Shown: positions 1-25,094, counted from the stretch's first letter. The stretch: 25,094 bases of DNA from Methanobacteriota archaeon (GCA_027064305.1 JAMOPY010000050.1:1-25094); one strand, 5' to 3'. A program made the numbers and translations. The notes: generated from the letters alone by a model not told the origin.

Positions 1-96
1 CGTGCCGCGACCCCGGCTGGGGCAACCGCGGCGGGCTGGCTCCGTGGGCAGGACTCAAGTTTCGCGCCGGTCCGGGATTGACCGGGGGTGGTCGCG

Positions 97-987
97 GTGG
101 ACCTGCGGGAGCACGTGTTGCGGTACGCGGTGGACGACGTGCGGGTGGTGAAGCGGCTGTTGCCGGGGGAGTCGGAGGCGTGGGTGGGGTTGGCGGACTT
201 CGATGACGCGGCGGTGGTGAGCGTGGAGAACGGGCTGGTGGTGAGTGCGGATGGTCCCTACGCGTTTCGGCTGGTGCGGAAGTCGGCGGTGGTGCACGCG
301 GCGACGGACGTGCTGGTGGCGGGTGGGCGGCCGCGGTTCGTGGTGGATACGATCATCGCGCCGTCGTGGGAGGGGGCGTTGGAGGCGGCGGAGTGCATCG
401 GGCGGCAGGCGCGGGAGTTGGGGTTGGAGGTGCTGGGTGGGAACACGATGGTGGAGGATGACGTGGGGGAGCCGAAGGTGTCGTTGACGGTGATGGGGGA
501 GCTGGTGGCGCCGGAGCCGATCACGGATAGGGGGGCGGAGCCGGGGGACGTGGTGTTGCTCGTGGGTGAGCCGATTCACGGTGGGTTTCGGGAGCGGATG
601 GAGCGGGCTCGGAGGTTGTTTCGGGCGTTTCCGGAGGTGGCGCGGCTGGGGTTGGTGAAGGCGGCGAAGGATGTGACGAAGGGGGGTCTGGTGGCGATGG
701 CGGCGTTGGTGTGCGCGAAGTCGGGGGTGGGGATGCGGTTGGACTCGGTTCCGTACGCGTCGATCACGAGGAATTGGGACAACGTGCTGGCGGTGGTGGG
801 AGAGGAGGACGTGGGGGAGGTGCTGGAGGTGTGCGTGGAGCGTGGGTGTCCGGTCTCGGTGATCGGTCGGGTGGTGGAGGAGCCGGTGTTGGAGGTGGCG
901 GGTCGGGTGTTGGTGGACGAGGATTTAATGGGGGAGTTGGTGGAGAGGCTGGGTCAGTTGGAGGGTGGTGGGGTCGGTTCGTCGTGA
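97..987 (+). CDS. AIR synthase/PurM-fold protein (ThiL/SelD/HypE superfamily), function unknown
   Basis: Motifs DDAAVV, ADG, DVLVAGGRP, LGGNT, GAEPGD, AAKDVTKGGL and IGRV are typical of the AIRS/AIRS_C domains. GTG at 97 follows an RBS-like GGGGGTG at 84-90; the ORF track starts at 88. Confidence 0.75.
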   Translation: MDLREHVLRYAVDDVRVVKRLLPGESEAWVGLADFDDAAVVSVENGLVVSADGPYAFRLVRKSAVVHAATDVLVAGGRPRFVVDTIIAPSWEGALEAAECIGRQARELGLEVLGGNTMVEDDVGEPKVSLTVMGELVAPEPITDRGAEPGDVVLLVGEPIHGGFRERMERARRLFRAFPEVARLGLVKAAKDVTKGGLVAMAALVCAKSGVGMRLDSVPYASITRNWDNVLAVVGEEDVGEVLEVCVERGCPVSVIGRVVEEPVLEVAGRVLVDEDLMGELVERLGQLEGGGVGSS

Positions 988-1439
988 GCGTGACGGTGTG
1001 GATGTTGCTGGCGGAGTTGTGCCTGGTGTTGGCGGCGGTCTCGTTGTTGTCGGGTTTGCTGTTGGAGCGGCGGATTGAGGCGTCGACGTGGTTTACGGTG
1101 GCGGATCTGCTCGTGTGCGCGGCGGCGATCTACGTGGGGATGACGGGCGGTCAGTTCTCGAGCGTGCTGCCGGATTGGGGGGTGGTGGCCGCGATCGTGG
1201 GGGCGTTGGTGCACATCACGTACACGTGGGTGCGGAAGACGCTGTGGCTGTTGTTGGGTTGGTTGGGGTGGTTTCGTCGGGGTGAGGAGGAGGTGGAGTT
1301 GGAGCGGCCGAGTCGGGCGAGGGCGTGGTTGACGCGGGTGTTGGAGCGGTTGGGGGTGGAGGAGCGGGTGGATCGTGGGGACGTGGAGGCGGCGCGTCGG
1401 GTCCTTAAGGTGTGTAGGCGGTGGGGTTGGAGGGAGTAG
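984..1439 (+). CDS. Hypothetical membrane protein (about 3-4 hydrophobic segments, charged C-terminal tail)
   Basis: The GTG start overlaps the upstream stop (GTGA at 984-987). Hydrophobic stretches include WMLLAELCLVLAAVSLLSGLLL and VVAAIVGALVHIT. It is the 3' part of ORF 711..1439. Confidence 0.6.
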   Translation: MSVTVWMLLAELCLVLAAVSLLSGLLLERRIEASTWFTVADLLVCAAAIYVGMTGGQFSSVLPDWGVVAAIVGALVHITYTWVRKTLWLLLGWLGWFRRGEEEVELERPSRARAWLTRVLERLGVEERVDRGDVEAARRVLKVCRRWGWRE

Positions 1440-1451: not shown

Positions 1452-1979
1452 GTGACGGAGCCCACGGTGGCGGGGTCGTTGTGTCTGTACGTGGGTGGTC
1501 GGTTGGCGCCGAGTCGGCGGCGTTGGAGGGAGTTGGGGGCGCGGGTCTCGGAGGTGGGTGCGGTGCTGTACGTGGTGGGGTTGGGGTTGTCGGGGGAGCC
1601 GGTGGAGCGGGAGGTGGCGTTGCCGGCGTTGCGAGGGTTGGAGTACGTGCACGCGTACGGTCGGCGGGCGGGGTTCGACGCGAGGGAGTTGGCGGGGGCG
1701 GTGCGGGCGTCGGTGGAGGATCCGGAGGGTGCCTTTTCGGAGGCGTTGGAGTGTTTGGGGCATCGGTTGCGGGGGTACGTGAACGCGCTGTTGAATCACG
1801 AGGAGTGGGTGGTGCGGCGGTTCTGTCGGGAGTTGGTGGAGGAGCTGCGGGGGACGCGGGGGTTGTCGCCGGGGGTGGCTCGGGCGTTGAGTTTGGTGGA
1901 GGGGTCGGTTGGGGAGGGTGGTCGGTCGTGGTCCTCGGTGTTGGGTGGTCTGTTTCGGTGGTTACCGGGTCGTCGGTGA
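1452..1979 (+). CDS. Hypothetical protein
   Basis: 175-aa ORF with an RBS-like GGGGGGTG upstream and protein-like composition. No family recognised. Confidence 0.55.
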   Translation: MTEPTVAGSLCLYVGGRLAPSRRRWRELGARVSEVGAVLYVVGLGLSGEPVEREVALPALRGLEYVHAYGRRAGFDARELAGAVRASVEDPEGAFSEALECLGHRLRGYVNALLNHEEWVVRRFCRELVEELRGTRGLSPGVARALSLVEGSVGEGGRSWSSVLGGLFRWLPGRR

Positions 1980-2984
1980 GCGCTCGGCGATGGAGAGGAT
2001 GTCGCTCATGACGGCGCTGGCGGTCTCGAGGGGGCCGGCGCCGCGGCCGGAGACGTAGATGGTGCCGGCGAGGTCGGTTTCGAGGCGGACGACGTTCATG
2101 ACGCCGCGGACGCGGGCGATGGGGTCGGATTTGGGCACGAGGCAGGGTCGGACGAGGAGGTCGCCGTCTCGGTCGGCGCGGCCGATGAGTTTGATGCGGT
2201 AGCCGCGCTCGTTGGCGATGCGGATGGCCTCGGGCGTGAGGTCCTCGATCCCGGTCACGTCGACGTCGTCGATGGTGCAGCGGACGCCGAGGATGGAGTT
2301 GGCGAGGATGACGATCTTGCAGGCGGTGTCCCAGCCCTCGATGTCCATGCTGGGGTCGGCCTCGGCGATGCCGCGGGACTGGGCGTCGGCGAGGGCGTCG
2401 TCGAGGGAGAGTCCCTCGGTCTCCATGCGGGTGAGGACGTAGTTGACGGTGCCGTTCAGGACGCCCTCGATGGAGAGCACGTCCACGCTCTTGAGGGTCT
2501 CGCGGACGAGGTTGAAGACGGGCATGGCGCCGCCGGCGGTGGCCTCGTAGCGGATGATGACGTCGCGGCGCTCGGCCGCGCGCATGATCCGGTCGTAGGC
2601 GACGGCGAGGGGGCCCTTGTTGGCGGTGACGACGTGGCGGCCGAGCTCGATCGCCTTGAGGATGTGGGAGAGGCCGGGCTCTCCGGTCTCGATGTCGGTG
2701 GGGGTGAGTTCGACGAGGACGTCGAAGTCCGCGTCCTCCATCGCCTCGAGGGCGTCGCGCTCGTCGCCGGCGGCGGCGACCGTGCCGTGCCGTTCCTTGA
2801 CGCGGAGGACCTCTTCGGGGTCGAGGTCCTCGCCGATCCAGGCGCCCCGGGAGTCGGCGACGCCGGTGAGCTCGACCCGGACGTTGAGCCGGCGGGCGTA
2901 CTGGTCGCGTTTTTCCCTGAGCAGTCGCATGAGGCCGCGGCCGACGGCGCCGAGGCCGATCACGAAGAGTCGGACGACGCGCAC
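1962..2984 (-). CDS. hom: Homoserine dehydrogenase
   Basis: Rossmann motif GLGAVG, plus HVVTANKGP, YEATAGGAMP, GVLNGTVNY, AEADPSMDIEGWDTACK and GRGAGPLETASAV. Confidence 0.95.
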   Translation of the reverse strand: MRVVRLFVIGLGAVGRGLMRLLREKRDQYARRLNVRVELTGVADSRGAWIGEDLDPEEVLRVKERHGTVAAAGDERDALEAMEDADFDVLVELTPTDIETGEPGLSHILKAIELGRHVVTANKGPLAVAYDRIMRAAERRDVIIRYEATAGGAMPVFNLVRETLKSVDVLSIEGVLNGTVNYVLTRMETEGLSLDDALADAQSRGIAEADPSMDIEGWDTACKIVILANSILGVRCTIDDVDVTGIEDLTPEAIRIANERGYRIKLIGRADRDGDLLVRPCLVPKSDPIARVRGVMNVVRLETDLAGTIYVSGRGAGPLETASAVMSDILSIAERSPTTR

Positions 2985-3475
2985 CGTACCACCTCCAGGG
3001 GGAAGAGGACGGTGAGGTCCTTCTCCTCGGCGATCTCTTCGATGACGCGGACCGCCTCGCGGAGGGCGCCCTCGTCCTCGTAGATGACGGTGAAGCCGGC
3101 GGAGGAGCGGCGCTCGGGGTCGGGCATCTCCAGGTCGACGTCCACGACCTGGACGCCCCGTACCGCGTTGACGCGGTCGATCGTGTCCTTGATGTCCGTG
3201 TCCACGATGTGCCCGATGAGGACGACCTCCATCTCGTGCCCGGGACCGCGGCCGAAGCGGAGGATCTTGACGTCCTCCAGCTCGCTGACGCGGCGGGAGT
3301 ACTCCCGGGCCGCCCGCTCGTCCGCCTCGAACACGAGGTGCACGCGCGCCCGGTCTCCCTCGCGCGAGTGTGAAATGCTAATAACGTTCCCGCCGACCTC
3401 GGACAGCGGCTCGAGGATGCGCACCAGCTGCCCGGGCTTGTCGGGGAGGATCACGTCCAGCTCGAACCGCTTCAT
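2960..3475 (-). CDS. Tandem ACT-domain amino-acid-binding protein (putative allosteric regulator of homoserine dehydrogenase)
   Basis: LPDKPGQL..IL..L...GGNVISISHSR and LIGHIVDTDIKDTIDR. It overlaps the hom start, the usual archaeal ACT-hom pair. ATG at 3475. Confidence 0.88.
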   Translation of the reverse strand: MKRFELDVILPDKPGQLVRILEPLSEVGGNVISISHSREGDRARVHLVFEADERAAREYSRRVSELEDVKILRFGRGPGHEMEVVLIGHIVDTDIKDTIDRVNAVRGVQVVDVDLEMPDPERRSSAGFTVIYEDEGALREAVRVIEEIAEEKDLTVLFPLEVVRCASSDSS

Positions 3476-3506
3476 CCGGGCGCTCCCCCCGGGGTGGATC
3501 GTCGCC

Positions 3507-4709
3507 ATGCTCGCCCCACTCATCGCCTTTCTGCTTCTCACCGCGCCGGCCGCGGGCGTGCGGGTGGAGGAGTACGACTGGACCGTCACGGCGGTGAAGC
3601 TGGAGACGGGTCAGGGCGAGATGAAAGTGCCACTGATGCACCCAACGCGCCTGAGGTTCATGGTGGCGAGCCCGGACTACGGGCAGGCGGAGTTCGGAAG
3701 GGACGTGGATGGGGACGGGGTGCCGGACCACACGTGGTGCGGCGAGGTGGCCGCGCTCACCCTGTACAACATCGCGGTCGCGAAGGGGTTCTGGCGGCCC
3801 ACGGCGGGGACGGACGTGAACCCGCTGAACCTGGAGCTGCGGGAGTCCTGGTTCGCCCGGATGACGGGGATACCGGTGGAGGACCGGGAGACGGACGGAC
3901 CGATGGCCGCGACCTCGCCGCCCTGGTTCCCGACCCTGCTCTCCCTGGCCGCGGACTTCCAGGATCCCAACGGGATCGGGGTCGTGATCTACGCGCCGCT
4001 GGCCACGGTGAGCCGGTGGTTCGTCATCGTACCCCCCGCCCTGCACGCGGTCCTGCTCGCGGGCGTCTCGGACGACGGTCGGTACTTCGTCGTCAAGGAC
4101 TGCTCCGCCCTGCAGGGGAGGGATTACTCGTGGGAGAAGGACTACTACCTCGTCCCCTCCTACTCGCTGGAGTTGAACGTCGCGGAGGCCGTGGAGGCGG
4201 TCTCGAACCCGCTGCAGGAGTCGTCCGGCGCGATGGTACCGGTGCTGTTCTTCCCGGTGCCGCGGTTCGGACTCCCGGAGGACCTGAAGCCTTTCGCCGT
4301 CGGGGGTAAGGAGGTCGACCTGGGTGGCGGGCTGAAGGCGCGCTTCCACATCCTGCTGGCCTCCACGATCTCCGACGTGCTGGAGATCGCCCGGATCCTG
4401 CTCAGGCACGGGATTCCGGTCGAGTGCCTGGTGCGAAAGCCCTTCGCGAGCCTGGCCTTCACCGGTCAGATCGTGGAGATCCCGCTGGTCCACCTGAGGG
4501 TTCTACGCATACTCTCCGTGCCGGTGCGGTGCGTGGTGACCGGGACCGGCGGCGGCTCCGGGGCCAGCCGGCCCGCCCCCTCCTCACGGTCCACCCCCAC
4601 CGAGGAGACCCGGGAGGTCGGCAAGCCCACCCGTAGGCACCTACCCATACTACCGATGGTTCCGCTCTGGGGAGGGTTCGGTTGTCGGAGACTCCGACGG
4701 TCCGGTTGA
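3507..4709 (+). CDS. Secreted protein with a putative papain-like (peptidase C39-like) Cys-His-Asp domain
   Basis: Signal-peptide-like MLAPLIAFLLLTAPAAG. WCGEVAAL (Cys), LHAVLLAG (His) and FVVKD (Asp). DVDGDGVPD loop, S/G/T/P-rich linker and a Pro-rich hydrophobic/basic C-terminus. ATG at 3507 follows GGGGTGG. Confidence 0.6.
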   Translation: MLAPLIAFLLLTAPAAGVRVEEYDWTVTAVKLETGQGEMKVPLMHPTRLRFMVASPDYGQAEFGRDVDGDGVPDHTWCGEVAALTLYNIAVAKGFWRPTAGTDVNPLNLELRESWFARMTGIPVEDRETDGPMAATSPPWFPTLLSLAADFQDPNGIGVVIYAPLATVSRWFVIVPPALHAVLLAGVSDDGRYFVVKDCSALQGRDYSWEKDYYLVPSYSLELNVAEAVEAVSNPLQESSGAMVPVLFFPVPRFGLPEDLKPFAVGGKEVDLGGGLKARFHILLASTISDVLEIARILLRHGIPVECLVRKPFASLAFTGQIVEIPLVHLRVLRILSVPVRCVVTGTGGGSGASRPAPSSRSTPTEETREVGKPTRRHLPILPMVPLWGGFGCRRLRRSG

Positions 4710-4993
4710 AGGGCAAGGATCGTGTCGTGGTCTGGCCCGTGTACTTCGACGCCGAGCGGTCGCGCTCGGAGGGCAGGAAGGTGCCCAAACGGCTGGCCGT
4801 GAAGAACCCGAGGCTCCGGGAGATAGCGGAGGTGGCGGAGGAGCTAGGTCTGAATCCCGAGGTGCAGAGGGACAAGCGGTACCCGAAGCGCTGGTGGCAG
4901 GATCGGGGCCGGTTGATCGTGGACAAGGTGGAGTCCAAGCGGAAGACGCTGCTGATGATCGCCGAGAGGCTTCGGGAGCGGCGGGAGCGTTGA
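4682..4993 (+). CDS. srp19: Signal recognition particle 19 kDa protein
   Basis: VVWPVYFD..RSRSEGRKVPK..AV..P and KRYPKRWW..GR....SK..LL..IA. TTG start. Confidence 0.95.
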   Translation: MSETPTVRLKGKDRVVVWPVYFDAERSRSEGRKVPKRLAVKNPRLREIAEVAEELGLNPEVQRDKRYPKRWWQDRGRLIVDKVESKRKTLLMIAERLRERRER

Positions 4994-5691
4994 GGGCGCT
5001 CGCCGTTCGGGCGCCCGGGCTGGATCGAGAGACGCGTCGGGCGTTCGCTCGAGCGGGCATGGAGGTGGAGATCGCGCACCCGGTGCGGCTGGTGCCCCTC
5101 CCCCGTCCCCGGCTGACCGTGGGGTTCCTGCGCCGGTACGACGTCGTCGCGTTCACGAGCCCGCGGACGGTTGAGTTCCTCGAGGGGGGCGAGCTGAGGG
5201 CGCTGAGGGAGTCGGGGGTGGACGTGGCCGCGGTGGGTCCGAGGACGGGGAGGGCGTTGGAGAGGTGCGGGCTGGACGTGGACGTGATGCCGGAGCGGTT
5301 CACGACGGGGGCGCTGGCGGACGCCCTTCGCGGTTACTCCCGCGTGCTCGCGCTGCGGTCCCGGCGGAGGACGGGTGAGCTACGGGAGCGGTTGGAGCGG
5401 TTCGGGGTGCGGGTGAGGGAGCTGGAGGTGTACGATCTGGAGCCCCGTTGGGTACGCGTGGATCCGTGGGACTTCGACGTGGTCTGCTTCTTCAGCGCGA
5501 TGACCGCCCGGTGTTTCCTGAGGTCGGTGGGAACCGACCTGCCGGAGCCGGTGGTCAGCATCGGGCCGGTGACCTCGAGGGAGCTGGAGCGGGCGGGGTT
5601 GGAGGTGGTCACGGCCCGGGAGTCCTCGCTGCGTGGGGTGGTGAGGACGGCGGTCCGGGTGGCTAGATCTCGGTCCCGAAGACCTCCTTGA
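4990..5691 (+). CDS. hemD: Uroporphyrinogen-III synthase
   Basis: YDVVAFTSPRTV, AAVGPRTG.AL, VYD, FFSA and SIGPVT. The TTG start overlaps the srp19 stop (TTGA). Confidence 0.88.
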   Translation: MRALAVRAPGLDRETRRAFARAGMEVEIAHPVRLVPLPRPRLTVGFLRRYDVVAFTSPRTVEFLEGGELRALRESGVDVAAVGPRTGRALERCGLDVDVMPERFTTGALADALRGYSRVLALRSRRRTGELRERLERFGVRVRELEVYDLEPRWVRVDPWDFDVVCFFSAMTARCFLRSVGTDLPEPVVSIGPVTSRELERAGLEVVTARESSLRGVVRTAVRVARSRSRRPP

Positions 5692-6820
5692 GCACCTCCT
5701 CGTGGGTCATGTCGACGCCGATCAGGATGCCCATCTCCTCCAGGGCCTCGATGATGCGCTTTCGGTCCTCCTCGCGCCGGACGACGATCCTGTGGGAGTG
5801 CACGTCCTTGGACAGCTCGTGGAGCCGCTCCAGGGCCCGTCGGGTGCGGGTCTCCCGGTGGAGCTCGTGTCGGGACTTCACGTCCTTCTCGTCCTCGATC
5901 CACAGCTCCTTCTTCAGCGGCTCCGGCAGGGAGGGGACGTGGTAGCGCACGTCCACGACGATCCCGCCGTTGCGGACGATGGTGAGCAGCTCCTCCTTCG
6001 TCCGCTCCAGGGGGTGTCGGACGGTCACGGTGAAGGAGAGGGGTTCGATGAGCAGGTCCGAGATGGCCGTGCCCGCCGCCCGGTAGATGTTGACCACCTC
6101 GTCCGCGCCCGCCCGCTTGAGGGTGCGGACGCCGGTGCGGGACTTGGCGGCGGCCACGATCCACACGTCCGGGTTGAGGTCCCGGATCAGGACGCAGGCG
6201 AAGACGTTGGTCTCGTCCGAGCCGGTGACGAGGGCCACGGCCTGGGAGCGCCTCACCCCGGCCTTCTCCAGGGTCCGCTCCGAGGTCACGTCCCCCTGCA
6301 CGGCCAGGTAGCCCCTGCGGAAGGCCCGCTCGCACTTCTCCGGGTCCTTGTCGACGACGACCACGTCGAACCCGAACTCCCGGAGGTTCTCCGCGATCTC
6401 GCGGCCCTCGCGGCCGTAACCGCACACGATCACGTGGTCCCGCAGGCGCTCGATCCTGGCGAGCGCGTCGCTCTCCTTGAGCCGCAACAGCACGTCGCCC
6501 CGCAGCAGGGCCCCGAAGACGCGGGAGATAACGTGAACGAGCGCGCCGAGCCCCGCGGCCAGGAGGATGATCGTGAAGAGCTTGCCGGAGGGGGTCCGCG
6601 GGGGGTTCGCGCACCCGACCCCGGTGAGGATCAGCACGGTCGTGTAGAGGGCGTCGACTAGGGGGCGATCCTCCAGCCACCAGAAGCCGAGGGTGCCGAG
6701 GAGTAGCAGGAAGGAGACGTACAGGATCGCGTACCGGACGGTGGTGACCGTGGCGGTCTCCTTGAGGAGGTTCCACACGTACCTCCACGCGTACAGCAGG
6801 GCGCGTATCTTAACCCTCAA
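5663..6820 (-). CDS. 2-TM potassium-channel-like protein with an RCK (TrkA-N) domain and a C-terminal 3H-like domain
   Basis: TM1, then DALY..V..LT-GVG pore region, then TM2 (GKLFTIILL..GLG). RCK motifs HVIVCGYGREG, GDVT....LEKAGV and AGADEVV. C-terminal V.H...E.EL..IV..GG.VVDV...H...HSH pattern. Confidence 0.82.
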   Translation of the reverse strand: MRVKIRALLYAWRYVWNLLKETATVTTVRYAILYVSFLLLLGTLGFWWLEDRPLVDALYTTVLILTGVGCANPPRTPSGKLFTIILLAAGLGALVHVISRVFGALLRGDVLLRLKESDALARIERLRDHVIVCGYGREGREIAENLREFGFDVVVVDKDPEKCERAFRRGYLAVQGDVTSERTLEKAGVRRSQAVALVTGSDETNVFACVLIRDLNPDVWIVAAAKSRTGVRTLKRAGADEVVNIYRAAGTAISDLLIEPLSFTVTVRHPLERTKEELLTIVRNGGIVVDVRYHVPSLPEPLKKELWIEDEKDVKSRHELHRETRTRRALERLHELSKDVHSHRIVVRREEDRKRIIEALEEMGILIGVDMTHEEVLKEVFGTEI

Positions 6821-7556
6821 CGCGCCCTTGACCCGCCAGATCGCGCCACCATCGTACCACCTCTCCGACGACGATGACGGCGGGCGGGTTCGCCCGCACG
6901 CGGCCGGAGGCGGCGTCGGACACCCTGCAGACGCGGATCCTCTCGTCTTCGGTCGTGCCGCGCTCGATGATCGCCATCGGCGCGTCCCCGACCGCGCGCT
7001 GCACGTCCCGGGCGATCTCCCGGAGCCGGCGCGCGCCCATGAGGATGACGAGCGTGTCGGCCGCCCGGGCGAGCGCCTCGAAGTCGACCCGGGGCTCCTC
7101 CTTGCTCGGGTCCTCGTGGCCGGTCGCGACGGCGAAGCTGGAGGCGTACCGGCGGTGGGTGAGCGGAAGGCCCACGGAGGAGGGGACGCCGACGGCCGAG
7201 GTGACGCCCGGGATCACCTCGACCTCGATCCCGTGCCGGAGGGCGGCCTCGAGCTCCTCCGCGCCGCGGCCGAAGACCATCGGGTCCCCGCTCTTCAGCC
7301 GGACCACGGTCCGGCCCCGGCGCCCCTCGCGCACGATCACCTCGTTGATCTCCTCCTGCGTCCACCCGCGGCCCCCGGGCCGCTTGCCCACGTCGATGAT
7401 CTCCGCCTCGTCGGGCGCGTACCGTTCCACCACGTCGTCCGGCACGAGCCGGTCCTTGAGCACCACGTCCGCCTCCGACAGGGCCCGGACGGCGCGCAGG
7501 GTGAGGAGCTCGGGGTCCCCGGGGCCCGCTCCGACCAAAACGAGTTTACCCGGCAA
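6810..7556 (-). CDS. cobA: Uroporphyrinogen-III C-methyltransferase
   Basis: GKLVLVGAGPGDPELLTLRA, VRLKSGDPMVFGRGAEE, IPGVTS, PLTHR and TGHED. Confidence 0.95.
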   Translation of the reverse strand: MPGKLVLVGAGPGDPELLTLRAVRALSEADVVLKDRLVPDDVVERYAPDEAEIIDVGKRPGGRGWTQEEINEVIVREGRRGRTVVRLKSGDPMVFGRGAEELEAALRHGIEVEVIPGVTSAVGVPSSVGLPLTHRRYASSFAVATGHEDPSKEEPRVDFEALARAADTLVILMGARRLREIARDVQRAVGDAPMAIIERGTTEDERIRVCRVSDAASGRVRANPPAVIVVGEVVRWWRDLAGQGRVEG

Positions 7557-7581
7557 CGGCCCGGTACCCCTGGGGGCGAGC

Positions 7582-8001
7582 TTGCACGAGCTGAGCCTCG
7601 CTCAGTCGATCCTGGACGCCGTTTTAGAGGTCGCGGAGGAGCGCGGGGCGGAGCGCGTGCTCGGGGTGAGGATCCGGGTGGGCGAGTTCACGATGGTGAA
7701 CCCGGAGCAGCTGCGGTTCTGCCTGGAGGCGCTGGCCGAGGGGACCCCGGCCGAGGGGGCCGAGTTCGAGATCGAGCTGGAGCGGGGCCGCCTGCGGTGC
7801 CGGGAGTGCGGGGAGGAGTGGAGCACGGACGAGGAGGAAGCTTTAAAGGACGCTCGGGACCCGGCCCTCCACGCCGCGTTCGGCTCGGAGGAGCTGCCGT
7901 CGCTGCTGGGCTTGAGGTGTCCGCGGTGCGGGTCCAGGTCGGTGGAGATCCGCGGCGGGGACTCGTGCGAGGTGCGCACCATCAGGCTGGAGTTTGGGTG
8001 A
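7582..8001 (+). CDS. hypA: Hydrogenase maturation nickel metallochaperone HypA
   Basis: TTG start gives MHELSLAQSI. Two CxxC motifs (CRECG, CPRCG) with a long spacer, and C-terminal GGDSC.V..I. Confidence 0.93.
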   Translation: MHELSLAQSILDAVLEVAEERGAERVLGVRIRVGEFTMVNPEQLRFCLEALAEGTPAEGAEFEIELERGRLRCRECGEEWSTDEEEALKDARDPALHAAFGSEELPSLLGLRCPRCGSRSVEIRGGDSCEVRTIRLEFG

Positions 8002-8007
8002 TTTTTC

Positions 8008-17053: not shown

Positions 17054-18961
17054 ATGGAGATCGAGGTCAAGACCGAGCACGTGGTGCCGGACACGAGCGT
17101 CGTCGTGGACGGTCGTATCTCCCGGCTGGCCGAGGAGGGGTACCTGGAGGACAAGACCGTGGTGATCCCGCGGGCCGTGGTGGCCGAGCTGGAGTACCAG
17201 GCCAACCGCGGGCGCGAGACCGGGTTCGCGGGCCTCCGGGAGCTCCAGGAGCTCCAGCGGCTGGCCCGGGAGGGTATCATCAAGGTCGAGTTCGCGGGCG
17301 AGCGTCCCGGGCTCGAGGAGATCCGGCTGGCCCGGAGCGGCGAGATCGACGCGATGATCCGCGAGGTGGCGCGGGAGTACGACGCGACGCTGATCACCAG
17401 CGACAAGGTGCAGGCCGAGGCGGCCAAGGCGGAGGGGATCGAGGTCGTCTACTTCGAGCCGATCACGAGGACGGGCGAGACCGAGATCGAGCGGATGATG
17501 CCGGAGAACGCCATGTCCCTGCACCTCAAGGAGAACGTGCCCCCCAAGGCGAAGGTGGGGCGCCCGGGCGACTGGAAGCTCGTCGAGCTGCGGCCCGAGC
17601 CGTGCACGCGGGAGGAGCTCGAGCGATGGGCCCGGGAAATCATCGAGAAGGCGCACGCGGACGAGGACAGCTTCGTCGAGATCGACCGGGGCGGGGCCAC
17701 CGTCGTACAGCTGCGCGACCTCCGCGTTTCCATCGCGCGGCCCCCGTTTTCGGAGGGCTGGGAGATCACCGCGGTGCGGCCCGTGGTCAAGGTCACCCTG
17801 GACGACTACGACCTCTCGGACAAGCTGAAGCGGCGGCTGAAGGAGCGGGCGGAGGGCATCCTGGTCGCCGGCCCGCCCGGCTCGGGCAAGTCCACCTTCT
17901 GCGCGGCGCTCGCCGAGTTCTACGCCGAGCAGGGTAAGATCGTCAAGACCATGGAGAGCCCGAGGGACCTACAGGTGAGCGACGAGATCACGCAGTACGC
18001 CCCGCTGGAGGGGGACATGGAGAAGACCGCCGACATCCTCCTCCTCGTCCGCCCGGACTACACCATCTACGACGAGGTGCGCAAGACCCGGGACTTCGAG
18101 GTCTTCGCCGACATGCGGCTCGCCGGCGTGGGCATGATCGGCGTCGTGCACGCGACCCGACCCATCGACGCGATCCAGCGCCTCATCGGCCGCGTCGAGC
18201 TCGGACTCATCCCCCAGGTCGTCGACACGGTCATCTTCATCGAGGATGGCCAGATCAAGAAGGTGTACGACGTGTCCATGACCGTCAAGGTGCCCACCGG
18301 CATGACCGAGGAGGACCTCGCGCGCCCCGTCGTCGAGGTGCGCGACTTCGAGACCGGGGAGCTCGAGTACGAGATCTACACGTACGGCGAGGAGGTCTTC
18401 GTCGTCCCCGTCAAGGAGACCGAGGAGCGCGAGACCCCCTCCGAGCGCCTCGCGGCCGAGGTCATCGAGCGCGAGGTCCGCCGGTTCGTCGGCGGCCGGG
18501 TTCCCGTGGAGGTCGAGGTCAAGGGCTCCCAGGCCACCGTCTACGTGCCCGAGAACGTCGTGCCCATGGTCATCGGCAAGCGCGGCCGCAACGTCGAGCA
18601 GATCGAGCGGCGCACCGGTCTCAAGATCGTGGTCAAGCCGCTCGAGGAGCGCGAGGGAAAGGGGGAGGGAGAGGCCCCAAAGCCCCCGGGCCCCCAGCGG
18701 GCGGACGGAAGGGTGGTCGAGGTCGAGTCGGGCGAGGAGTTCCCGATGGAGGTCGTGGACGACGGTGAGTACATCCGGCTGCGCGTGGGCGAGCGGTTCG
18801 CGGGCCGACCCGTGAAGGTGTTCGTGGAGGACGAGTACGTGTTCACGGCCACCGTGGGCTCGAGCGGGGAGGTCCGGGTGAACAAGGAGACCTCCGTGGG
18901 CGAGCGGCTCGAGCGGGCGCTCCACCAGGGTCGGGAGATCCGGGTGCAGACGATCCCGTAA
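17054..18961 (+). CDS. PINA: PIN-domain + PilT/VirB11-type ATPase + KH domain protein
   Basis: PIN motif VPDTSVVVDG. Walker A GPPGSGKST, ESPRDL, TIYDEVR, DMRLAGVGMIGVVHA. KH motif VIGKRG. ATG at 17054 follows GGTG; the ORF track starts at 17045. Confidence 0.92.
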   Translation: MEIEVKTEHVVPDTSVVVDGRISRLAEEGYLEDKTVVIPRAVVAELEYQANRGRETGFAGLRELQELQRLAREGIIKVEFAGERPGLEEIRLARSGEIDAMIREVAREYDATLITSDKVQAEAAKAEGIEVVYFEPITRTGETEIERMMPENAMSLHLKENVPPKAKVGRPGDWKLVELRPEPCTREELERWAREIIEKAHADEDSFVEIDRGGATVVQLRDLRVSIARPPFSEGWEITAVRPVVKVTLDDYDLSDKLKRRLKERAEGILVAGPPGSGKSTFCAALAEFYAEQGKIVKTMESPRDLQVSDEITQYAPLEGDMEKTADILLLVRPDYTIYDEVRKTRDFEVFADMRLAGVGMIGVVHATRPIDAIQRLIGRVELGLIPQVVDTVIFIEDGQIKKVYDVSMTVKVPTGMTEEDLARPVVEVRDFETGELEYEIYTYGEEVFVVPVKETEERETPSERLAAEVIEREVRRFVGGRVPVEVEVKGSQATVYVPENVVPMVIGKRGRNVEQIERRTGLKIVVKPLEEREGKGEGEAPKPPGPQRADGRVVEVESGEEFPMEVVDDGEYIRLRVGERFAGRPVKVFVEDEYVFTATVGSSGEVRVNKETSVGERLERALHQGREIRVQTIP

Positions 18962-18999: not shown

Positions 19000-19090
19000 G
19001 CCGGGGCGGCCGAGCCCGGTCCAAGGCGCGGGATTGGAGATCCCGTGGCCCGTATGGGCCGCCCGGGTTCAAATCCCGGCCCCGGCGCCA
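19000..19090 (+). tRNA. tRNA-Ser(GGA), long variable arm, CCA encoded, C at position 8
   Basis: Acceptor GCCGGGG/CCCCGGC, G73, CCA. Anticodon arm CGGGA-TTGGAGA-TCCCG. Variable arm GGCCC-GTAT-GGGCC. T-arm CCGGG-TTCAAAT-CCCGG. Position 8 is at nt 19007. Confidence 0.97.
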
Positions 19091-19096: not shown

Positions 19097-19119
19097 ATCG
19101 TTACGAAAATCATAACGAT
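19097..19119. repeat. Palindromic element in the tRNA-Ser 3' trailer (copy 2 of 2)
   Basis: ATCGTTACG-AAAAT-CATAACGAT, starting 6 nt after the CCA. Confidence 0.75.
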
Positions 19120-19134: not shown

Positions 19135-20424
19135 ATGGAGGTGCACAAGTTCGGCGGCACCTCCGTCTCCTCCGAGGAGGGACTCCGCACCCTCGAGGCC
19201 TCCGCCGCCTCGGGCAACGTCCTCGTCGTCTCCGCCCTCGCCGGGGTCACCGACGCCCTCGAACGCTTCCTCCACGACGCCTGCCGGGGCGCCGCGGACC
19301 CCGACCCCATCATCGACCGGCATGAGCGCTTCATCGCCGAGCACCTGGAGGAAGACCACCGAGAGGTCCGCGAGTTCCTGCGACAGATGCGCACGATCCT
19401 CGAGGGCGTCGCCCCCGTCCTCGAGCAACTGGAACGCCCCGAGGACCGCCTCCGAGACCTCGTCCTCTCCCTCGGAGAGCGCGCCTCCGCCCGACTCATC
19501 GCCGCCTACCTCCGCGAGCGGGGCATCCCCGCCCGCGCGTACGACGCCTGGGAACTGGGCCTCATCACCAACGACCGGCCCGGCAACGCGGACATCATCC
19601 GCTGGGAGGGCACCCGCTCCAAGCTACTGAGGGACCTCAGGGCCGGCCGCATCCCCGTCGTCACCGGCTTCATCGGCCGCTCCGAGCGCGGTCACATCAC
19701 CACCCTGGGCCGCGGCGGCTCCGACTACACGGCCACCATCCTCGCCGGCATCCTGGGCACCCGAGCCCTGATCTGGACCGACGTCGACGGGATCATGACC
19801 ACCGACCCCGACCTCACCGAGGCCCGCGTCGTCGAACGCCTCTCCTACGACGAGGCCATGATGGCCGGCGCCTCCGGGGCCGAGGTCATCCACCCCAAGG
19901 CCGTCGAGGCCGCTAAGAACCTCGAGGTGAAGATCCTCATCGGCAACTCCCACACGGCCACCGTGGGCACGCTGATCTCCGAGAAGACCGAACCCGGACC
20001 CAAGGTCGTCGCCGCCCGCGAGGACGTCGCCCTCATCCAGATCACCGGCGCCCGCATGATGGACGAGCCCGGCGTCATCGGCGCCGTCACCACCCGACTC
20101 GGCGACCACGACGTCAACATCCTCGCCCTCCTTACCACCGCCTCCGAACCCCGCATCAACATCCTCATCGAGGAGGGGGAGGTGGACCGAGCCCGCGAGG
20201 CCCTCCGCCACCTCGACTACGAGTGCAAGGTACGGGAGGACGTGGGCCTCGTCACCGTCGTCGGCGAGGGCATGTCCCACCAGGACGTGTCCACGTTCCT
20301 CGCCTCCTGCCCCGGGTTCGAGCTACTGGGCAGCGCCTACGGGGCCGTCGCCGTCAGCGTCGCGGTCCCCCGCGAGCACACCTCCCGCACCGCCCGCGCC
20401 CTCGCCGAAGCCCTCCTAGGCTGA
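19135..20424 (+). CDS. lysC: Aspartate kinase
   Basis: VHKFGGTSV, VVSALAGVTD.L, SLGER.SA, TTLGRGGSDYTA, WTDVDGIMTTDP and C-terminal ACT domains. ATG at 19135. Confidence 0.95.
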   Translation: MEVHKFGGTSVSSEEGLRTLEASAASGNVLVVSALAGVTDALERFLHDACRGAADPDPIIDRHERFIAEHLEEDHREVREFLRQMRTILEGVAPVLEQLERPEDRLRDLVLSLGERASARLIAAYLRERGIPARAYDAWELGLITNDRPGNADIIRWEGTRSKLLRDLRAGRIPVVTGFIGRSERGHITTLGRGGSDYTATILAGILGTRALIWTDVDGIMTTDPDLTEARVVERLSYDEAMMAGASGAEVIHPKAVEAAKNLEVKILIGNSHTATVGTLISEKTEPGPKVVAAREDVALIQITGARMMDEPGVIGAVTTRLGDHDVNILALLTTASEPRINILIEEGEVDRAREALRHLDYECKVREDVGLVTVVGEGMSHQDVSTFLASCPGFELLGSAYGAVAVSVAVPREHTSRTARALAEALLG

Positions 20425-23400
20425 CTACCAGCGCGGCCCCCGGGCGACCACCCCGCGCCTCGCGGCCACCCACCCCGACACGATCAGCACCGTGAGCACC
20501 AGCGCCAGCACCCACTCCCAGATCCTGCGCACCGACGAGGCGGCCTGAGCCGCCGCCCTCGATAGCGTGCTGGCCGCCCTCGCCGCCGCCTTCCCGCTCG
20601 CCGCCGACCTCCCGACGGCGCCCCGGGCCGCCGAGACCGACCCGACCGCCGAGGCGCGGGAGACCGAACCCGACGAACCGGCCGCGCCACCGCCGACCCG
20701 ACCCGCACTCAGCCGACCGGAGATCGGGGCCCCACGGACGCCGATCGTCACCGTCCGGCCCCCACGACCACCCAGACCCGAGCCCGCGCGACCCGACGGC
20801 CCCGAGGCCCCACCGGAGACACTCACCGACCCGGCCCGAACGACCGCCCGGACCGCCGTCGTGACCGCCTGAGCCGCCGCACCGAGGGCCGAGCGGAAGG
20901 ACGAGGACGGGGACAGCCGCGCCGCCGATCCCGGGGACCCACCACGGGCCCGGGCCACCCCGTGCCTCCCGACGGCCGTGGGGGCGACCCCGGAGGGACC
21001 GGACCGAGCGCCCTGAACCGAGGCGCTCCGGGCTCCCGGTGACGCGGACCCGGGGGCGGCCGTTCCGGGCCGGCCGTACCTCCGCAGCACCTCCCTCAGC
21101 AGGGAGCGGATCTGCCGCACGATCTCCGGGTTATCCAGCCGCCGGTACCACTCCAACACCCGGTTCACCAGGCCCGCGACCTCCGAGTACGAGTACCCCG
21201 CCTCCAGCAGGACCCGGACGGCGTACGCGACCAGGGCCGGGTTCGGGCTCGTGTGGTGGCACGTGGCTGGTCCGTGCCGGGCCATGACCCGCAGCAGCGT
21301 CTGGGCCACCCTGACCAGCACGGAGCGGTCCCGAGGTTGCCAGACGCCCAGCCGGGCCAGCTCCACGAACCAGGCCAGGGAGGAGACGACCGACGCCCAC
21401 CCGTACTCCGTGCTCGGCGGATGCCTTGAGAGCTCCTCCAGCAGCCGGCTCGCCACCCGGGTGTACAGCCCGTTGAGCGGGGCGCGCAGGGACGGGACGG
21501 TGATCCCCCAGCCGGCCAGGAACTCGATCCGACGGGCGACGCGTGACCACCCGTAGTCCCCGTGCCGAAGCATCGCGTTCCACCAGGACGGGCTCAGCAG
21601 CTTGGTGTAGACCTCGCCCGCCAGCTGCTCGAACGCGGACCGGGTGCGGGCCGCGGTCGGGTCGATCGCGTTGGCGATGTACACCTCCGGGGCGCGCCCG
21701 GAGGCGAACGTGGCGTACAGGGCCATCCCGCCCACCCAGTCGTAGAAGTCGTCCGTGTCGATCAGGCCCCAGGTGTTCACCACGCTGTGCACCACGGCCC
21801 GCACCTTGGACATGAGGTACCGGAACGCGGTGACCGACGGGATCGCGTGGTACACCTCGCCCGTGCTCGTCCGCAGCACCATCACACGGACCCGCTCGCC
21901 CTGACGCACGACCACGATCCGCGCCCGCGCCGAGTACACGTACGCCATCCGCGCCTCGCACGCCTCCCGGAACCGCTCCCAGAACCGCTCCTGGAACCGC
22001 CGCAGCGCCTCCGAGGGACCCTCGAGCACCCCCACGGTCCCCGACACGTCCGTCCACGCGTGCTCCACCACGTCCGAGGCGCCCGCCCCCGTGAAGACCC
22101 CCGGCGGCTGCGCGAAGTACCCGCTGGAGGCGATCACGTCCGCCAGCTCCCGCGCCTCCCGGGCCGAGTAACCCAACCGCCGCAGCTCCTCCTCCACCCG
22201 GGGCCTCAGCTCCAGGTAGTGCCGCCGACGGTAGTTCAGCTCCGACGGCTCGTCCACGTGCGAGACCAGGTAGAACGCGTCGGCGAGCAGCTTCAACGGC
22301 GCCTCCATGTGCAGCGCGGCCCACACGACCACGTCGATCCGCGGCCGGCGGAGCCACCGCCCGTCCACCCGCACCCTCAGATCCCGCAGCGGGATCAGCT
22401 CCACCCCGATCACCCGACCCGAGTCCGGATCCCACACCGGGCGCACGCCCAGCAGGTACAGCGCCATCGCGATGTTCAGCCCGCCCGTGCAGAGCTCGTG
22501 CACGCCCCAGATCACCACGCCGACGGCCTCCGGCCAGGACCGGTGCTCCCGGTAGTACCGGGCCAGGAACTCATCCACCAGCCGCTTGGCCACCTCCCAC
22601 GCCTCCGGCGTCGGCAGCATGTTAGGATCGATCGGGTACCCGTCCCGACCCGTGGGCAGCACGGCCGGGTTCCACATCGGCTCCCCCAGCAACCCCGGCG
22701 GCACGAACCGCCCGTCCAACCCCCGGAGCAGGTGCTCCAGCTCCGACTCCCCCGACCGCAGGTAGTGCGCGTAGATCCGGTAGACCCGGGCCGCGGCCTC
22801 CGCGAGCAGGTGCTCGTACTCCCGATCCTCCCGCACCGCCCCGAACGTCTCTAACACCGCCCGCCGGGCCAGCTCCACCAACCGATCCCGGAAGCCCCGG
22901 AACGCCCGGGTCGCGGGGTTGGTGAGCCGGGGCCGCCACCCGTAGTACTCCTCCAGATCCTTCCACCGAACGTACTCGTCCAGTCCCCTCACCAGGCCCG
23001 GATCCAGCAGGATCTCCCGGAGCAGCCGGGCGAGGCACTCCCTCAGCCGCCGCTTGAACCCGGCGAACGCGTCCGGGTGCTCCGCCCGAAACCGCTCCAG
23101 CTCGCCCGGATCCGGCTGCTCGATCAGGCCCGCGTAGTAGGCGAACACGGCGTTCACGTCCGGCATCGAGGAGGCCAGCACGCCCGCCTCCCGGATCGCC
23201 GCCTCCCGGTCCGGGCCCCGACCGTACACGTGCAACCCGTACGCCACGTTGCTCAGCGCCAGGTCCAGCAGGAAGTCGTGCAGCTTGCTCACGAACTCGT
23301 CGAAGTGCTCGAGCGCCCACCGCCTCGGGTCCCGAGCCGCACCACCCCGCTCCGACAGGATCGCGTCGACCACGGTCCGCAGCAGCCCCAACCGACCCGC

Positions 23401-25092
23401 CTCCTCCACGATCCTCTCCCGAAGCTCGCCCAGCATCCTCGGGTCTCCGCCGATCATCCGCAGCTGCAGGTAGCGCGTGACCTCGCGCCACAGCCGATCG
23501 TACCGCTCGAAGTCCCGGAAGTAGCTCCAGGCCGGGGGCAGGTGGGTCAGCAGCACCGGGCCCGACCGGTACTTGGCGACCATGGCCTCGCCCGGGTTGC
23601 TGACGATGTAGATGTAGAAGTGCGGAACGTCCGGCAGCAGCACGTGCGGCCAGTCCACCCCCAGCAGCCCCACCTGGTGCCCCGGCAGCCACTCCAGCGT
23701 CCCGTGCGTGCCCACGTGCACCACCGCGTCCGCCCGGAACACGCGCCGCAACCACTCGTACGCCGCGATGTACTGCCACTGAGGCGGCAGGTCCGGCGAA
23801 TGGTACACGAGCTCCGGGGAGCCCGACCAGCCCCGCACGGGCTGCAGCGTGATCACCACGTTCCCCAGCCGGAGCGCCGGGATCACATAGTACCGATCCC
23901 ACCGCATGATCCCCCGGTTGTCCGACGGCGGCCCGAAGCGCTCCTCCACCGCCCGCATCCACCGCTCCAACGCCTCCCGCGCCCGCCGCACCCGCTCGTC
24001 GTCACCCCGCAGCAGGGACAGGTAGTACCGGAACCGGGAGAGCACGTCCTCCCGGTACCACCGCTCGAGCTCCTCCACGGGCACCAGCCGATCCGGCCCC
24101 ACCGTCCCCAGCACGTACGAGCGCCCGTCCACGTCCACCCAGACCACCCGACCGCCCTCCACGATGACCCTCATCTCACCCGACTTCCAGCGAATCGCGC
24201 GCTCGGCGCGCCCACCCCGGTACAGCCGGACCATCCCCGCGAGCTCACCCTTCGCCCACGGACCCACGTTCTTCAGCACCAGGTCCGCGGCCTCCATCAG
24301 GGCGTGCGCGAGCCGATCCTCGAACGCCTCCGCCTCCCTAGGATCCCGACGCCGCAGCTCCACCACCCGGCGGAACACCTCCCCCGCCGGCCCCAGATCG
24401 TACCCCCGCTCCACCATGGCCGCCAGCACGTTGATCAGCGAGCGGAACACGTCCAGGTACGCGGCCCCGATCGCGTCCCGACCCGGCGGGTAACAGTAGA
24501 GCACGAACGCCACCCGCTTCCGCGACTCCGGCAGGTACCGCAACCGCACGAACCCGACCACCAGCCGGGCCAGATCCCGCACCATGTCCCGCAGCGGAAA
24601 GACGCTCATCCGATCCGACCGCTTCAGCGCGCACAGCTTGAACCAGAACGCGCCCTCCGCCTCCGGACCCCCGATCACCTGATAACCCCACTCGAACACG
24701 GCCCCCACGAGCCCCGAGTTCGGCGCATCCTTCTCCAGATCCAGGTAGTGCCAGGGCTCGCAGGCCCAGTCCGACCAGAACGGGTACACCACCTTGATCA
24801 CGGGCGCGTCCAGCTCCCGGAGCGCCCACGCGGCCGAGTACGGGTAGTTCATCGTGAACGCCCACAACGAGACGACCGCCGCCACCTCGTACCCCAACCG
24901 CCGCAGCTCCTGCAGCACCCCACGACCCTCGAAGTCCACCGGCGGGACCACGTTCCCGTCGCACAGCAGGGCCACCACGCCCACGTCCCGCAGCCCGGAC
25001 CGCGCCAGCTCCCCCCGGATCTCCTCCACCACCCGCTCCACCAGCCCCGACTCACCCTTGTAAAGGGCGTCAACGTAACCGAGCACCACCAC
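20425..25092 (-). CDS. CobN/Mg-chelatase H-subunit-like protein with a low-complexity linker and C-terminal TM anchor (5' end lies outside the window)
   Basis: YCYPPG...IGAAYLDVF.SL, QPVRG, PP..QYIAAY.WL, ADAVVHVGTHGTLEWLPG, GLHVYG, LPTGR, LLGVRPVWD, RPRIDV and DTDDFY. Ser/Gly/Ala/Arg-rich stretch followed by WEWVLALVLTVLIVSGWVAARR. Confidence 0.9.
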   Translation of the reverse strand: MVVLGYVDALYKGESGLVERVVEEIRGELARSGLRDVGVVALLCDGNVVPPVDFEGRGVLQELRRLGYEVAAVVSLWAFTMNYPYSAAWALRELDAPVIKVVYPFWSDWACEPWHYLDLEKDAPNSGLVGAVFEWGYQVIGGPEAEGAFWFKLCALKRSDRMSVFPLRDMVRDLARLVVGFVRLRYLPESRKRVAFVLYCYPPGRDAIGAAYLDVFRSLINVLAAMVERGYDLGPAGEVFRRVVELRRRDPREAEAFEDRLAHALMEAADLVLKNVGPWAKGELAGMVRLYRGGRAERAIRWKSGEMRVIVEGGRVVWVDVDGRSYVLGTVGPDRLVPVEELERWYREDVLSRFRYYLSLLRGDDERVRRAREALERWMRAVEERFGPPSDNRGIMRWDRYYVIPALRLGNVVITLQPVRGWSGSPELVYHSPDLPPQWQYIAAYEWLRRVFRADAVVHVGTHGTLEWLPGHQVGLLGVDWPHVLLPDVPHFYIYIVSNPGEAMVAKYRSGPVLLTHLPPAWSYFRDFERYDRLWREVTRYLQLRMIGGDPRMLGELRERIVEEAGRLGLLRTVVDAILSERGGAARDPRRWALEHFDEFVSKLHDFLLDLALSNVAYGLHVYGRGPDREAAIREAGVLASSMPDVNAVFAYYAGLIEQPDPGELERFRAEHPDAFAGFKRRLRECLARLLREILLDPGLVRGLDEYVRWKDLEEYYGWRPRLTNPATRAFRGFRDRLVELARRAVLETFGAVREDREYEHLLAEAAARVYRIYAHYLRSGESELEHLLRGLDGRFVPPGLLGEPMWNPAVLPTGRDGYPIDPNMLPTPEAWEVAKRLVDEFLARYYREHRSWPEAVGVVIWGVHELCTGGLNIAMALYLLGVRPVWDPDSGRVIGVELIPLRDLRVRVDGRWLRRPRIDVVVWAALHMEAPLKLLADAFYLVSHVDEPSELNYRRRHYLELRPRVEEELRRLGYSAREARELADVIASSGYFAQPPGVFTGAGASDVVEHAWTDVSGTVGVLEGPSEALRRFQERFWERFREACEARMAYVYSARARIVVVRQGERVRVMVLRTSTGEVYHAIPSVTAFRYLMSKVRAVVHSVVNTWGLIDTDDFYDWVGGMALYATFASGRAPEVYIANAIDPTAARTRSAFEQLAGEVYTKLLSPSWWNAMLRHGDYGWSRVARRIEFLAGWGITVPSLRAPLNGLYTRVASRLLEELSRHPPSTEYGWASVVSSLAWFVELARLGVWQPRDRSVLVRVAQTLLRVMARHGPATCHHTSPNPALVAYAVRVLLEAGYSYSEVAGLVNRVLEWYRRLDNPEIVRQIRSLLREVLRRYGRPGTAAPGSASPGARSASVQGARSGPSGVAPTAVGRHGVARARGGSPGSAARLSPSSSFRSALGAAAQAVTTAVRAVVRAGSVSVSGGASGPSGRAGSGLGGRGGRTVTIGVRGAPISGRLSAGRVGGGAAGSSGSVSRASAVGSVSAARGAVGRSAASGKAAARAASTLSRAAAQAASSVRRIWEWVLALVLTVLIVSGWVAARRGVVARGPRW

Positions 25093-25094
25093 CA

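Follow-up and report, generated by a model that had tools for sequence, protein, structure and literature searches.

Kilobase-scale strand-skew dipoles of one handedness in a GC-rich archaeal genome

The stretch of DNA analyzed here (the window; 25,094 nucleotides) is the whole of contig G000:C50 (JAMOPY010000050.1) from a heat-loving Methanobacteriota archaeon whose assembly, GCA_027064305.1 (G000 below), comprises 1.21 Mb in 50 contigs at ~70% GC. The left end of the window is an arm of extreme strand skew, in which G and T are enriched on one DNA strand whatever the direction of the genes. In G000 and in some relatives such arms, 1 to 6 kb long, are paired as "dipoles" of a single handedness. 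Five genomes of the same genus (G001 to G005) were used for comparison. Genes of G000 were called with a finder blind to G versus C at codon position 3 (1322 genes), and the gene strands of the window were confirmed with Pfam.

The left arm (positions 1 to 2984) is G/T-rich on the plus strand, with a third-codon-position (GC3) skew of +0.5 to +0.8, and holds three plus-strand genes and one minus-strand gene. The first gene (88 to 987) encodes an AIR-synthase-related protein of the PurM superfamily (Pfam AIRS/AIRS_C and NCBIfam matches) and is followed by two hypothetical genes without a family match in Pfam or NCBIfam (984 to 1439 and 1452 to 1979); GC skew at fourfold-degenerate sites is +0.94, +0.87, and +0.92 in the three genes, respectively. 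The fourth gene, hom (homoserine dehydrogenase by Pfam; 1962 to 2984, minus strand), has a sense fourfold GC skew of −0.78 and is G-rich on the plus strand, the same DNA strand as its plus-strand neighbors. At the other end of the window, lysC (aspartate kinase; 19,135 to 20,424, with a start of 19,045 in the Pfam placement, plus strand; fourfold GC skew −0.71) forms a one-gene C/A-rich block, which is also skewed in G003. It is followed by a CobN-type chelatase gene (Pfam; 20,425 to 25,092, minus strand) that runs off the contig and whose third positions, taken together in sense, have a skew of +0.29. Codon choice follows the same lines: the GTG/GTC, GCG/GCC, and CGG/CGC counts (Val, Ala, and Arg) are 50/3, 30/0, and 19/0 in the AIRS-like gene; 6/30, 4/31, and 6/24 in hom; 6/29, 4/45, and 5/26 in lysC; and 122/45, 102/69, and 137/24 in the CobN gene. 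These tallies bear out the contrast between the left genes and lysC, mirrored by hom and CobN, that a first-pass annotation had drawn from the sequence.

In 1-kb windows, positions 1 to 2000 have a bulk GC skew of +0.48 to +0.52 and an AT skew of −0.24 to −0.44, and as a 2-kb window they rank first in skew among all 2243 in the genome (2-kb binomial standard deviation, 0.027). The middle of the window has bulk GC skews between about 0 and +0.25; at 19 to 25 kb, GC skew is −0.09 to −0.28 and AT skew +0.11 to +0.29. The third-position profile resolves into blocks. A plateau of +0.5 to +0.8 extends from position 1 to about 2850 and drops off over ~300 nt where hom has its 5′ end, the level from 3 to 18 kb is about +0.1, lysC alone stands at −0.55, and the plus-strand GC3 skew of the CobN gene goes from −0.05 to −0.40 as the right end is approached. 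The first-pass annotation had instead proposed a smooth gradient left by a process that starts near each edge and decays inward. Neither the gradient nor the decay is seen, since the arms are plateaus that end abruptly, and a start near the edge is supported on the left, where comparison with G003 and G005 places the center just past the contig end. On the right, the CobN gene may be one arm of a further dipole with an unassembled center; a partner for this arm was sought and not found, and the same region in G003 has skew of the same sign but weaker. The hand counts behind the annotation were exact for 1501 to 1560 (G35 C10 T11 A4), 19,441 to 19,500 (C28 G15), and 20,701 to 20,760 (C27 G18 A10 T5); for 2041 to 2100, C15 was correct and G was 26 rather than 27.

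The low-skew middle of the window (2985 to 18,000; third-position GC skew about +0.11) has genes on both strands. By Pfam these include HemD, a TrkA_N/3H protein, a tetrapyrrole methylase, HypA, HypB, S8e, a second AIRS protein, a metallo-beta-lactamase, MoaA, RsmB, HisRS, HisI, and a PIN-ATPase-KH protein. There are two tRNA genes in the window, tRNA-Tyr (11,702 to 11,779, minus strand) and tRNA-Ser (19,000 to 19,090, plus strand), followed by copies of a 19-nt palindrome, considered below, at 11,675 to 11,693 and 19,099 to 19,117; the lysC skew block begins right after the latter.

The strand pattern extends over the genome. For 1208 genes of at least 100 amino acids, skew was taken at fourfold-degenerate sites, and amino-acid content is controlled because such sites were used. 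Sense skew is correlated between same-strand neighbors (r = +0.64, n = 801) and anticorrelated between opposite-strand neighbors (r = −0.59, n = 355). Skew therefore tracks position and DNA strand rather than the direction of transcription, as the first-pass annotation had stated, and it persists at fourfold sites of genes on both strands. Since shadow open reading frames (ORFs) could fake an anticorrelation between opposite-strand neighbors, 57 genes of the most extreme regions were scanned with Pfam; the called frame was confirmed for 47, which are ordinary housekeeping genes. A small sense-strand effect is also present genome-wide (mean sense skew, +0.135). Segmentation of third-position G and C yielded 159 segments, with |skew| ≥ 0.5 in 2.5% and |skew| ≥ 0.3 in 10% of sites.

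In every dipole, the strand running 5′→3′ outward from the center is the G/T-rich one, regardless of gene direction, and the bias toward G and T affects silent sites and, in part, replacement sites too. Every sign-reversing switch inside contigs is from minus to plus on the top strand. In G000, such switches are found in C15 at 19.1 kb (−0.62 to +0.60) and in C40 at ~12 kb (−0.80 to +0.65); at a 3-kb contrast of at least 0.8, there are two upward jumps and no downward ones. In the 430-kb contig C15 of G003, dipoles lie at 183 and 345 kb (two up and none down at a contrast of at least 0.6). Further dipoles of the same polarity are found at 112 to 118 kb of that contig, in G005:C201, and in contigs C39 and C46 of G000 once they are joined by a 127-nt overlap. 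At a contrast of 0.5, upward and downward jumps are about equal (8 and 9) because each arm also has an outer edge. No genome-wide sawtooth, which the first-pass annotation had anticipated, is present: 400 kb of G003 hold only three dipoles on a flat background, and the complete genome of G002 has none of this pattern.

The annotation had also remarked that both ends of the window are G/T-rich when read inward, and this extends to other contigs. Among contig-end segments with |skew| ≥ 0.3, left ends are positive in eight cases and negative in one and right ends negative in all seven, so that 15 of 16 are G-rich inward. Assembly thus tends to break at dipole centers. The effect is weak when all contig ends are taken (mean inward skew, about 0.05), and many of the 24 joins by 127-nt overlap are unskewed.

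The dipole to which the left arm of the window belongs can be reconstructed from relatives. G003:C15 shares 86% identity with the window and has the orthologous arm at 109.2 to 111.9 kb; next come 6 kb of orphan ORFs of low GC3, a DUF1678 gene among them, and then an arm of opposite skew at 118 to 122.4 kb. The counterpart of this second arm in G000, and hence the partner of the left arm, is C10 12.0 to 16.6 kb (91% identity). G005:C201 holds this same dipole complete, with an 11-kb center of GC content 0.51 to 0.68. Positions 1 to 127 of the window match, at 100% identity, the final 127 bases of G003:C53 and of G003:C50, two short contigs that carry alternative versions of the island. By sequence comparison, then, the center is a strain-variable island of orphan genes. 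Its 21 ORFs comprise 17 without a Pfam family, two transglutaminase-like, one DUF1678, and one with a weak winged-helix match below the cutoff; replication genes were sought among them as a possible cause, and that sub-cutoff match was the only hit. Ribosomal RNA was likewise considered as the center of this dipole, and none was found in G003 at 100 to 140 kb. Exact 127-base contig overlaps number 24 within G000, besides the one joining the window to contigs binned in G003, which points to an assembly graph shared at k = 127 and, possibly, to C53 and C50 having been mis-binned.

Divergence from the close relative G005 was compared with that from G003, which is more distant. The three plus-strand genes at 88 to 1976 have a G005/G003 divergence ratio of 0.93 to 1.0, compared with a usual value of about 0.3 to 0.4; the ratio for hom is 0.26, and the step between them indicates a recombination breakpoint near 1.98 kb. 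A second stretch, G000:C15 7574 to 9423, also reaches a ratio of up to ~1 (0.92 to 1.0 over the two stretches) and is without skew. Both stretches have the look of DNA replaced by recombination.

The arms are single-copy housekeeping DNA, syntenic in five genomes of the genus. Their skew is inherited at orthologous positions: they are skewed alike in G005, G003, and G004, relatives of ~62 to 70% GC, and weakly skewed in G001 and G002, whose orthologous regions are 58 to 61% GC. In G002 (complete, 1.69 Mb, 61% GC), the neighbor correlations are +0.24 and −0.20; no two-replichore pattern was detected, 50-kb bins stay within ±0.07, and there is a single 3-kb contrast of at least 0.5. The dipoles thus belong to the higher-GC lineage. 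The left arm was recovered at ~99% identity, with no loss of listed depth, in contigs from four public runs of two studies. A self-search with 23 arms (55.9 kb) returned as non-self matches only tRNA genes, one 203-nt internal match of 69% identity, and a contig-end overlap. Being syntenic, the arms are not island-like, and a variable island is present only at the center of one dipole.

What lies at the upward jumps, a question raised by the first-pass annotation, differs from dipole to dipole: a 16S rRNA gene, the variable island, an intron-bearing tRNA gene, a small spacer, and contig breaks. The center of the C40 dipole is the 16S rRNA gene. It is flanked at 10.3 to 11.2 and 12.7 to 13.0 kb (L010 7330 to 10,040) by many RUGAUGA...CUGA-like strings, as expected for C/D-box small RNA genes, of which Rfam called none at its gathering score. 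The center of the C15 dipole is a 247-nt spacer with small-RNA-like strings and the hairpin formed by the 19-nt palindrome; in G003 the same spacer carries a 1035-nt DUF1678 insertion, compared with 51 nt in G000. In the joined C39 and C46, the sign flips at the intron-bearing tRNA gene. Beside it lies a 568–amino acid ORF (C46 414 to 2117; L012), residues 244 to 532 of which match inteins (Hint plus LAGLIDADG) of RtcB, RFC, and VMA proteins.

DUF1678 (PF07913; ~200 amino acids) is mobile and multicopy and was confined to this genus in the searches made. At E ≤ 0.001 there are 2 matches in G000 (C10 17,130 to 17,690 and C31 36,026 to 36,589), 10 in G003 (including C15 117.3, 244.0, and 344.75 kb), 10 in G005, 19 in G002, 2 in G001, and 3 in G004, and the gene can be present or absent at the same spacer between two species. 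Its structure, predicted with confidence (predicted local distance difference test score, 77.5), gave no fold match (best Foldseek E value, 0.07; best VIA Z score, 4.5). As a cause of the dipoles DUF1678 was rejected, the C15 dipole of G000 having no copy.

The 19-nt palindrome, (A)ATCGTTACG-N5-CGTAACGAT(T), has 62 copies in the genome at up to two mismatches, compared with 4 in a shuffled genome. It begins 8 to 12 nt past the 3′ end of 19 of 26 tRNA genes called by ARAGORN, and the 16S rRNA gene is flanked by it as well; its probable role is that of a terminator or processing hairpin of stable RNAs. As a marker of skew jumps it was rejected, the mean |jump| being 0.240 at 57 sites and 0.182 at 367 other spacers (P = 0.19).

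To see which changes maintain the asymmetry, silent changes along the branches leading to G000 and G005 were polarized by parsimony, G003 serving as the outgroup, and oriented to the G-rich strand. The extreme set comprised 18 genes, with 138 changes at 2431 sites, and the background set 24 genes, with 337 changes at 3582 sites. G>A occurred at 31 of 1728 sites in the extreme set (0.018) and at 93 of 1633 in the background (0.057; P = 1e-9), and G>C was also rarer (0.012 versus 0.026, P = 0.002). C>G was more frequent in the extreme set (0.039 versus 0.022, P = 0.04), as was T>G (8/130 versus 2/156, P = 0.05). C>T (24/512, 0.047, versus 87/1654, 0.053) and T>C (0.069 versus 0.109) did not differ significantly, and A>G was not raised (0.049 versus 0.079). 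All changes together amounted to 0.057 per site in the extreme genes and 0.094 in the background. Such a comparison of orthologues had been suggested by the first-pass annotation, and it places the strand asymmetry in a deficit of G>A and G>C on the G-rich strand: the asymmetry is maintained by fewer changes away from G, not by added damage to C. A deficit of this kind without extra C>T counts against simple single-strand deamination. Cytosine deamination on an exposed strand, one of the causes that the annotation had offered, is thus not supported, with C>T not raised and G>A ~3-fold lower on that strand. The spectrum favors strand-specific protection or repair, or a bias in transmission. A raised mutation rate in the arms was also considered and rejected: fourfold divergence to G003 is lower there, 0.21 (n = 41) versus 0.31 (n = 121), a difference that is partly a compositional ceiling, and at codon positions 1 and 2 extreme and other genes are equally diverged. 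In the background genes, recent silent changes are mostly GC→AT (224 versus 33) despite a GC3 content of about 0.95; GC3 is either decaying now or upheld by something other than mutation.

Our preferred reading, to which we give a probability of only about 0.35, is that the dipoles are recombination tracts begun at the centers and filtered by the keto-mismatch nuclease NucS/EndoMS. The centers would be recurrent break or nick sites: the DUF1678-bearing island, the 16S rRNA gene, the intron-bearing tRNA gene beside the intein-like LAGLIDADG ORF, and the small-RNA-like spacer. Resection in the 5′→3′ direction would leave 3′ tails, of the minus strand on the right and of the plus strand on the left, and pairing of these tails with another copy of the genome would yield heteroduplex of fixed polarity over a few kilobases per side. 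NucS/EndoMS would abort those transfers that place a G or T of the invading strand in a mismatch, and A and C would pass; over time the invading strand would become A/C-rich and its complement G/T-rich. Such an outcome would match the polarity seen, the coupling of GC with TA skew, and the kilobase-scale, abruptly ending arms that differ between lineages. NucS/EndoMS is taken as the filter because it is the only mismatch system found in the genus: NucS_C was detected in all five genomes searched (G000 to G004) and MutS_V in none of the five. EndoMS cuts G/T, G/G, and T/T mismatches and hardly A/C, A/A, or C/C (PMC4838380), and Takemoto et al. (PMC6159521) tie the enzyme to strand-specific mutation preferences. 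Under such filtering, G>A, G>C, and T>C should be lowered and C>G raised, and the three significant shifts, in G>A, G>C, and C>G, agree in sign. The anomalous divergence ratio of the three genes next to the center of the window's dipole was counted as recombination in support of this reading.

Several observations weigh against NucS-filtered recombination. The reading was devised after the spectrum had been seen, so its fit is post hoc, and the rise in C>T and A>G that it also predicts was not seen (0.047 versus 0.053 and 0.049 versus 0.079). The spectrum was drawn by parsimony, with one outgroup, from 18 extreme and 24 background genes. Break sites, nuclease targets, and heteroduplex at the centers are all things that we infer. 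Across 40 three-way orthologues, the G005/G003 divergence ratio did not correlate with |skew| (Spearman 0.10, P = 0.52), and the recombined stretch at 7.5 to 9.4 kb of C15 has no skew. The low-GC relatives, with their weak dipoles, have NucS as well, so NucS alone does not explain the difference. As for DUF1678 as the initiating element, the 244-kb copy in G003 lacks a dipole, and 18 tested copies in G002 were not tied to jumps (P about 0.06).

The main alternative, possible but rather doubtful, is that the centers are local starts of DNA synthesis (extra origins, R-loop–primed or recombination-dependent initiation, or in situ firing of captured mobile elements) and that the arms are the first few kilobases copied outward, where differences between leading- and lagging-strand polymerases or repair write the skew. 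Every sign-reversing dipole has the polarity of bacterial origins, from minus to plus on the top strand, as do 15 of the 16 strongly skewed contig-end segments. Cdc6_C was absent from searches of G000 and G003 and sub-threshold in G002, which raises the possibility that the genus starts replication unusually. Three centers are highly transcribed stable-RNA genes, and one is a variable island of the sort left by captured elements. Uracil-sensing polymerases that shield one template could give a G>A deficit on a leading-type strand. However, forks from true origins should skew the whole replichore, whereas the arms end abruptly at 1 to 6 kb and no long-range replichore pattern was found in 400 kb of G003 or in complete G002. 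The total silent change rate is lower in the arms, not higher, and the island yielded no replication genes, its winged-helix match lying below the cutoff. We regard as less probable still the bolder form of this alternative, in which an Orc1/Cdc6-poor archaeon would begin copying its chromosome at the centers, in about ten or more zones at stable-RNA genes and captured islands, with R-loop– or break-primed synthesis running outward for a few kilobases before ordinary forks take over and the skew as its trace.

It is unlikely that transcription wrote the skew, with divergent or read-through transcription from stable-RNA genes exposing the nontemplate strand, or giving the template strand preferential repair, across the neighboring genes in whichever direction they run. 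Mean sense skew is positive genome-wide, as noted above, a 16S rRNA gene and a tRNA gene are among the centers, and a G>A deficit on the G-rich strand is what preferential template-strand repair would produce. The hairpin lies within 300 nt of 6 of 35 extreme-segment boundaries, compared with 4.5% of gene junctions (P = 0.004, a post hoc comparison), but most of its copies are without a jump. A skew of transcriptional origin should change sign with the coding strand of each gene, and it does not: opposite-strand neighbors are anticorrelated, and hom and lysC are reversed. Arm genes on the opposite strand (hom, Fe-ADH, PIN_5, a thiamine pyrophosphate enzyme, and a KaiC-like gene) have reversed sense skew, so antisense transcription would need to exceed sense transcription there. 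Furthermore, lysC, downstream of the plus-strand tRNA-Ser gene, is C-rich on the plus strand, the opposite of what read-through would give, and background genes show no sense/antisense difference (C>T 0.053, G>A 0.057).

That nothing positional is involved is very improbable, whether the data are put down to codon choice in particular genes, to horizontal transfer, to a single inversion, or to an artifact of assembly or sequencing, causes that the first-pass annotation had in part allowed: the signal in the window is carried by few genes, hom and lysC share one pathway, and the strongest skew coincides with contig ends, but the strand-based neighbor correlations span the genome, fourfold sites exclude amino-acid effects, the arms are syntenic in five relatives with the same skew in G005, G003, and G004, four runs of two studies recover the left arm, and inversion of ordinary DNA, with a background skew of about 0.1, cannot yield 0.7.

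Compared with known strand asymmetries, the dipoles resemble the origin skew of bacteria (and some archaea) in that G and T are enriched together, the top strand flips from minus to plus, gene direction is immaterial, and silent sites are affected most. They differ in their arms of 1 to 6 kb with abrupt ends, in a silent-site amplitude of 0.7 to 0.9, and in occurring several times per 400 kb on a flat background with no replichore-wide trend. At the two centers inspected no repeated boxes were seen, and no dedicated repeat search was made. Vertebrate mitochondria have a strong silent-site bias of G/T versus A/C that is independent of gene direction and is modeled as deamination of the displaced strand. 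That model needs C>T and A>G to be in excess on the exposed strand; in the dipole arms these changes are not raised and the complementary ones are lowered. Co-conversion tracts of homing endonucleases and inteins are break-initiated, kilobase-scale, and run outward from a center beside selfish insertions. Similarly, one dipole center adjoins the intein-like LAGLIDADG ORF, and two centers carry a mobile single-gene insertion, although we know of no report that co-conversion writes strand skew.

Full-text literature searches, some of them directed at GRINS and EndoMS, surfaced no description of such dipoles in this genus or in archaea. A close likeness is to GRINS, which have intense coupled GC/TA skews linked to gene conversion, are commonest in Streptomyces and of unknown mechanism, and are defined by duplication within a single gene cluster (>500 bp, >80% identity) (PMC8256042). 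The dipole arms are GRINS-like in having coupled GC/TA skews with abrupt changes and a maximum at third positions, with mean absolute GC and TA skews above 0.15 and correlated, and in a shift of amino acids (Val, Gly, and Trp up; Thr, His, Gln, and Pro down). This shared shift and the link of GRINS to gene conversion count in favor of the recombination reading. Unlike GRINS, the arms are single copy rather than duplicated and lie in archaeal housekeeping genes, and the dipoles are of one handedness. A study of human CpG islands and skew N-domains (Polak and Arndt 2009, PMC2817419) reports bidirectional strand asymmetries that are weak and extend over 100 kb to 1 Mb. There, as here, complementary rates differ with opposite sign on either side of a point, and replication, transcription, and recombination are candidate causes; the dipoles, by comparison, are extreme and kilobase-scale.

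A silent-site skew of 0.7 to 0.9 over a few kilobases, one-handed and independent of gene direction, is far beyond ordinary replication or transcription skew, and the dipoles point to a strand-specific DNA transaction of some kind that recurs at fixed places on the chromosome. If NucS-filtered recombination is that transaction, GRINS in actinobacteria could be accounted for along the same lines, and a mismatch nuclease would shape codon usage and protein composition. If initiation of replication takes place at the centers instead, they would show where copying starts in a lineage with no such site known. In practice, the arms distort codon-usage and horizontal gene transfer predictors as well as shadow-ORF gene calls. 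The centers are where assembly breaks, with strongly skewed contig ends sitting in arms and the centers left unassembled. Finally, a moderately skewed region far longer than dipole arms is present in G000:C23, where over 0 to 57 kb the top-strand fourfold skew is about −0.3 to −0.4 with genes in both directions.

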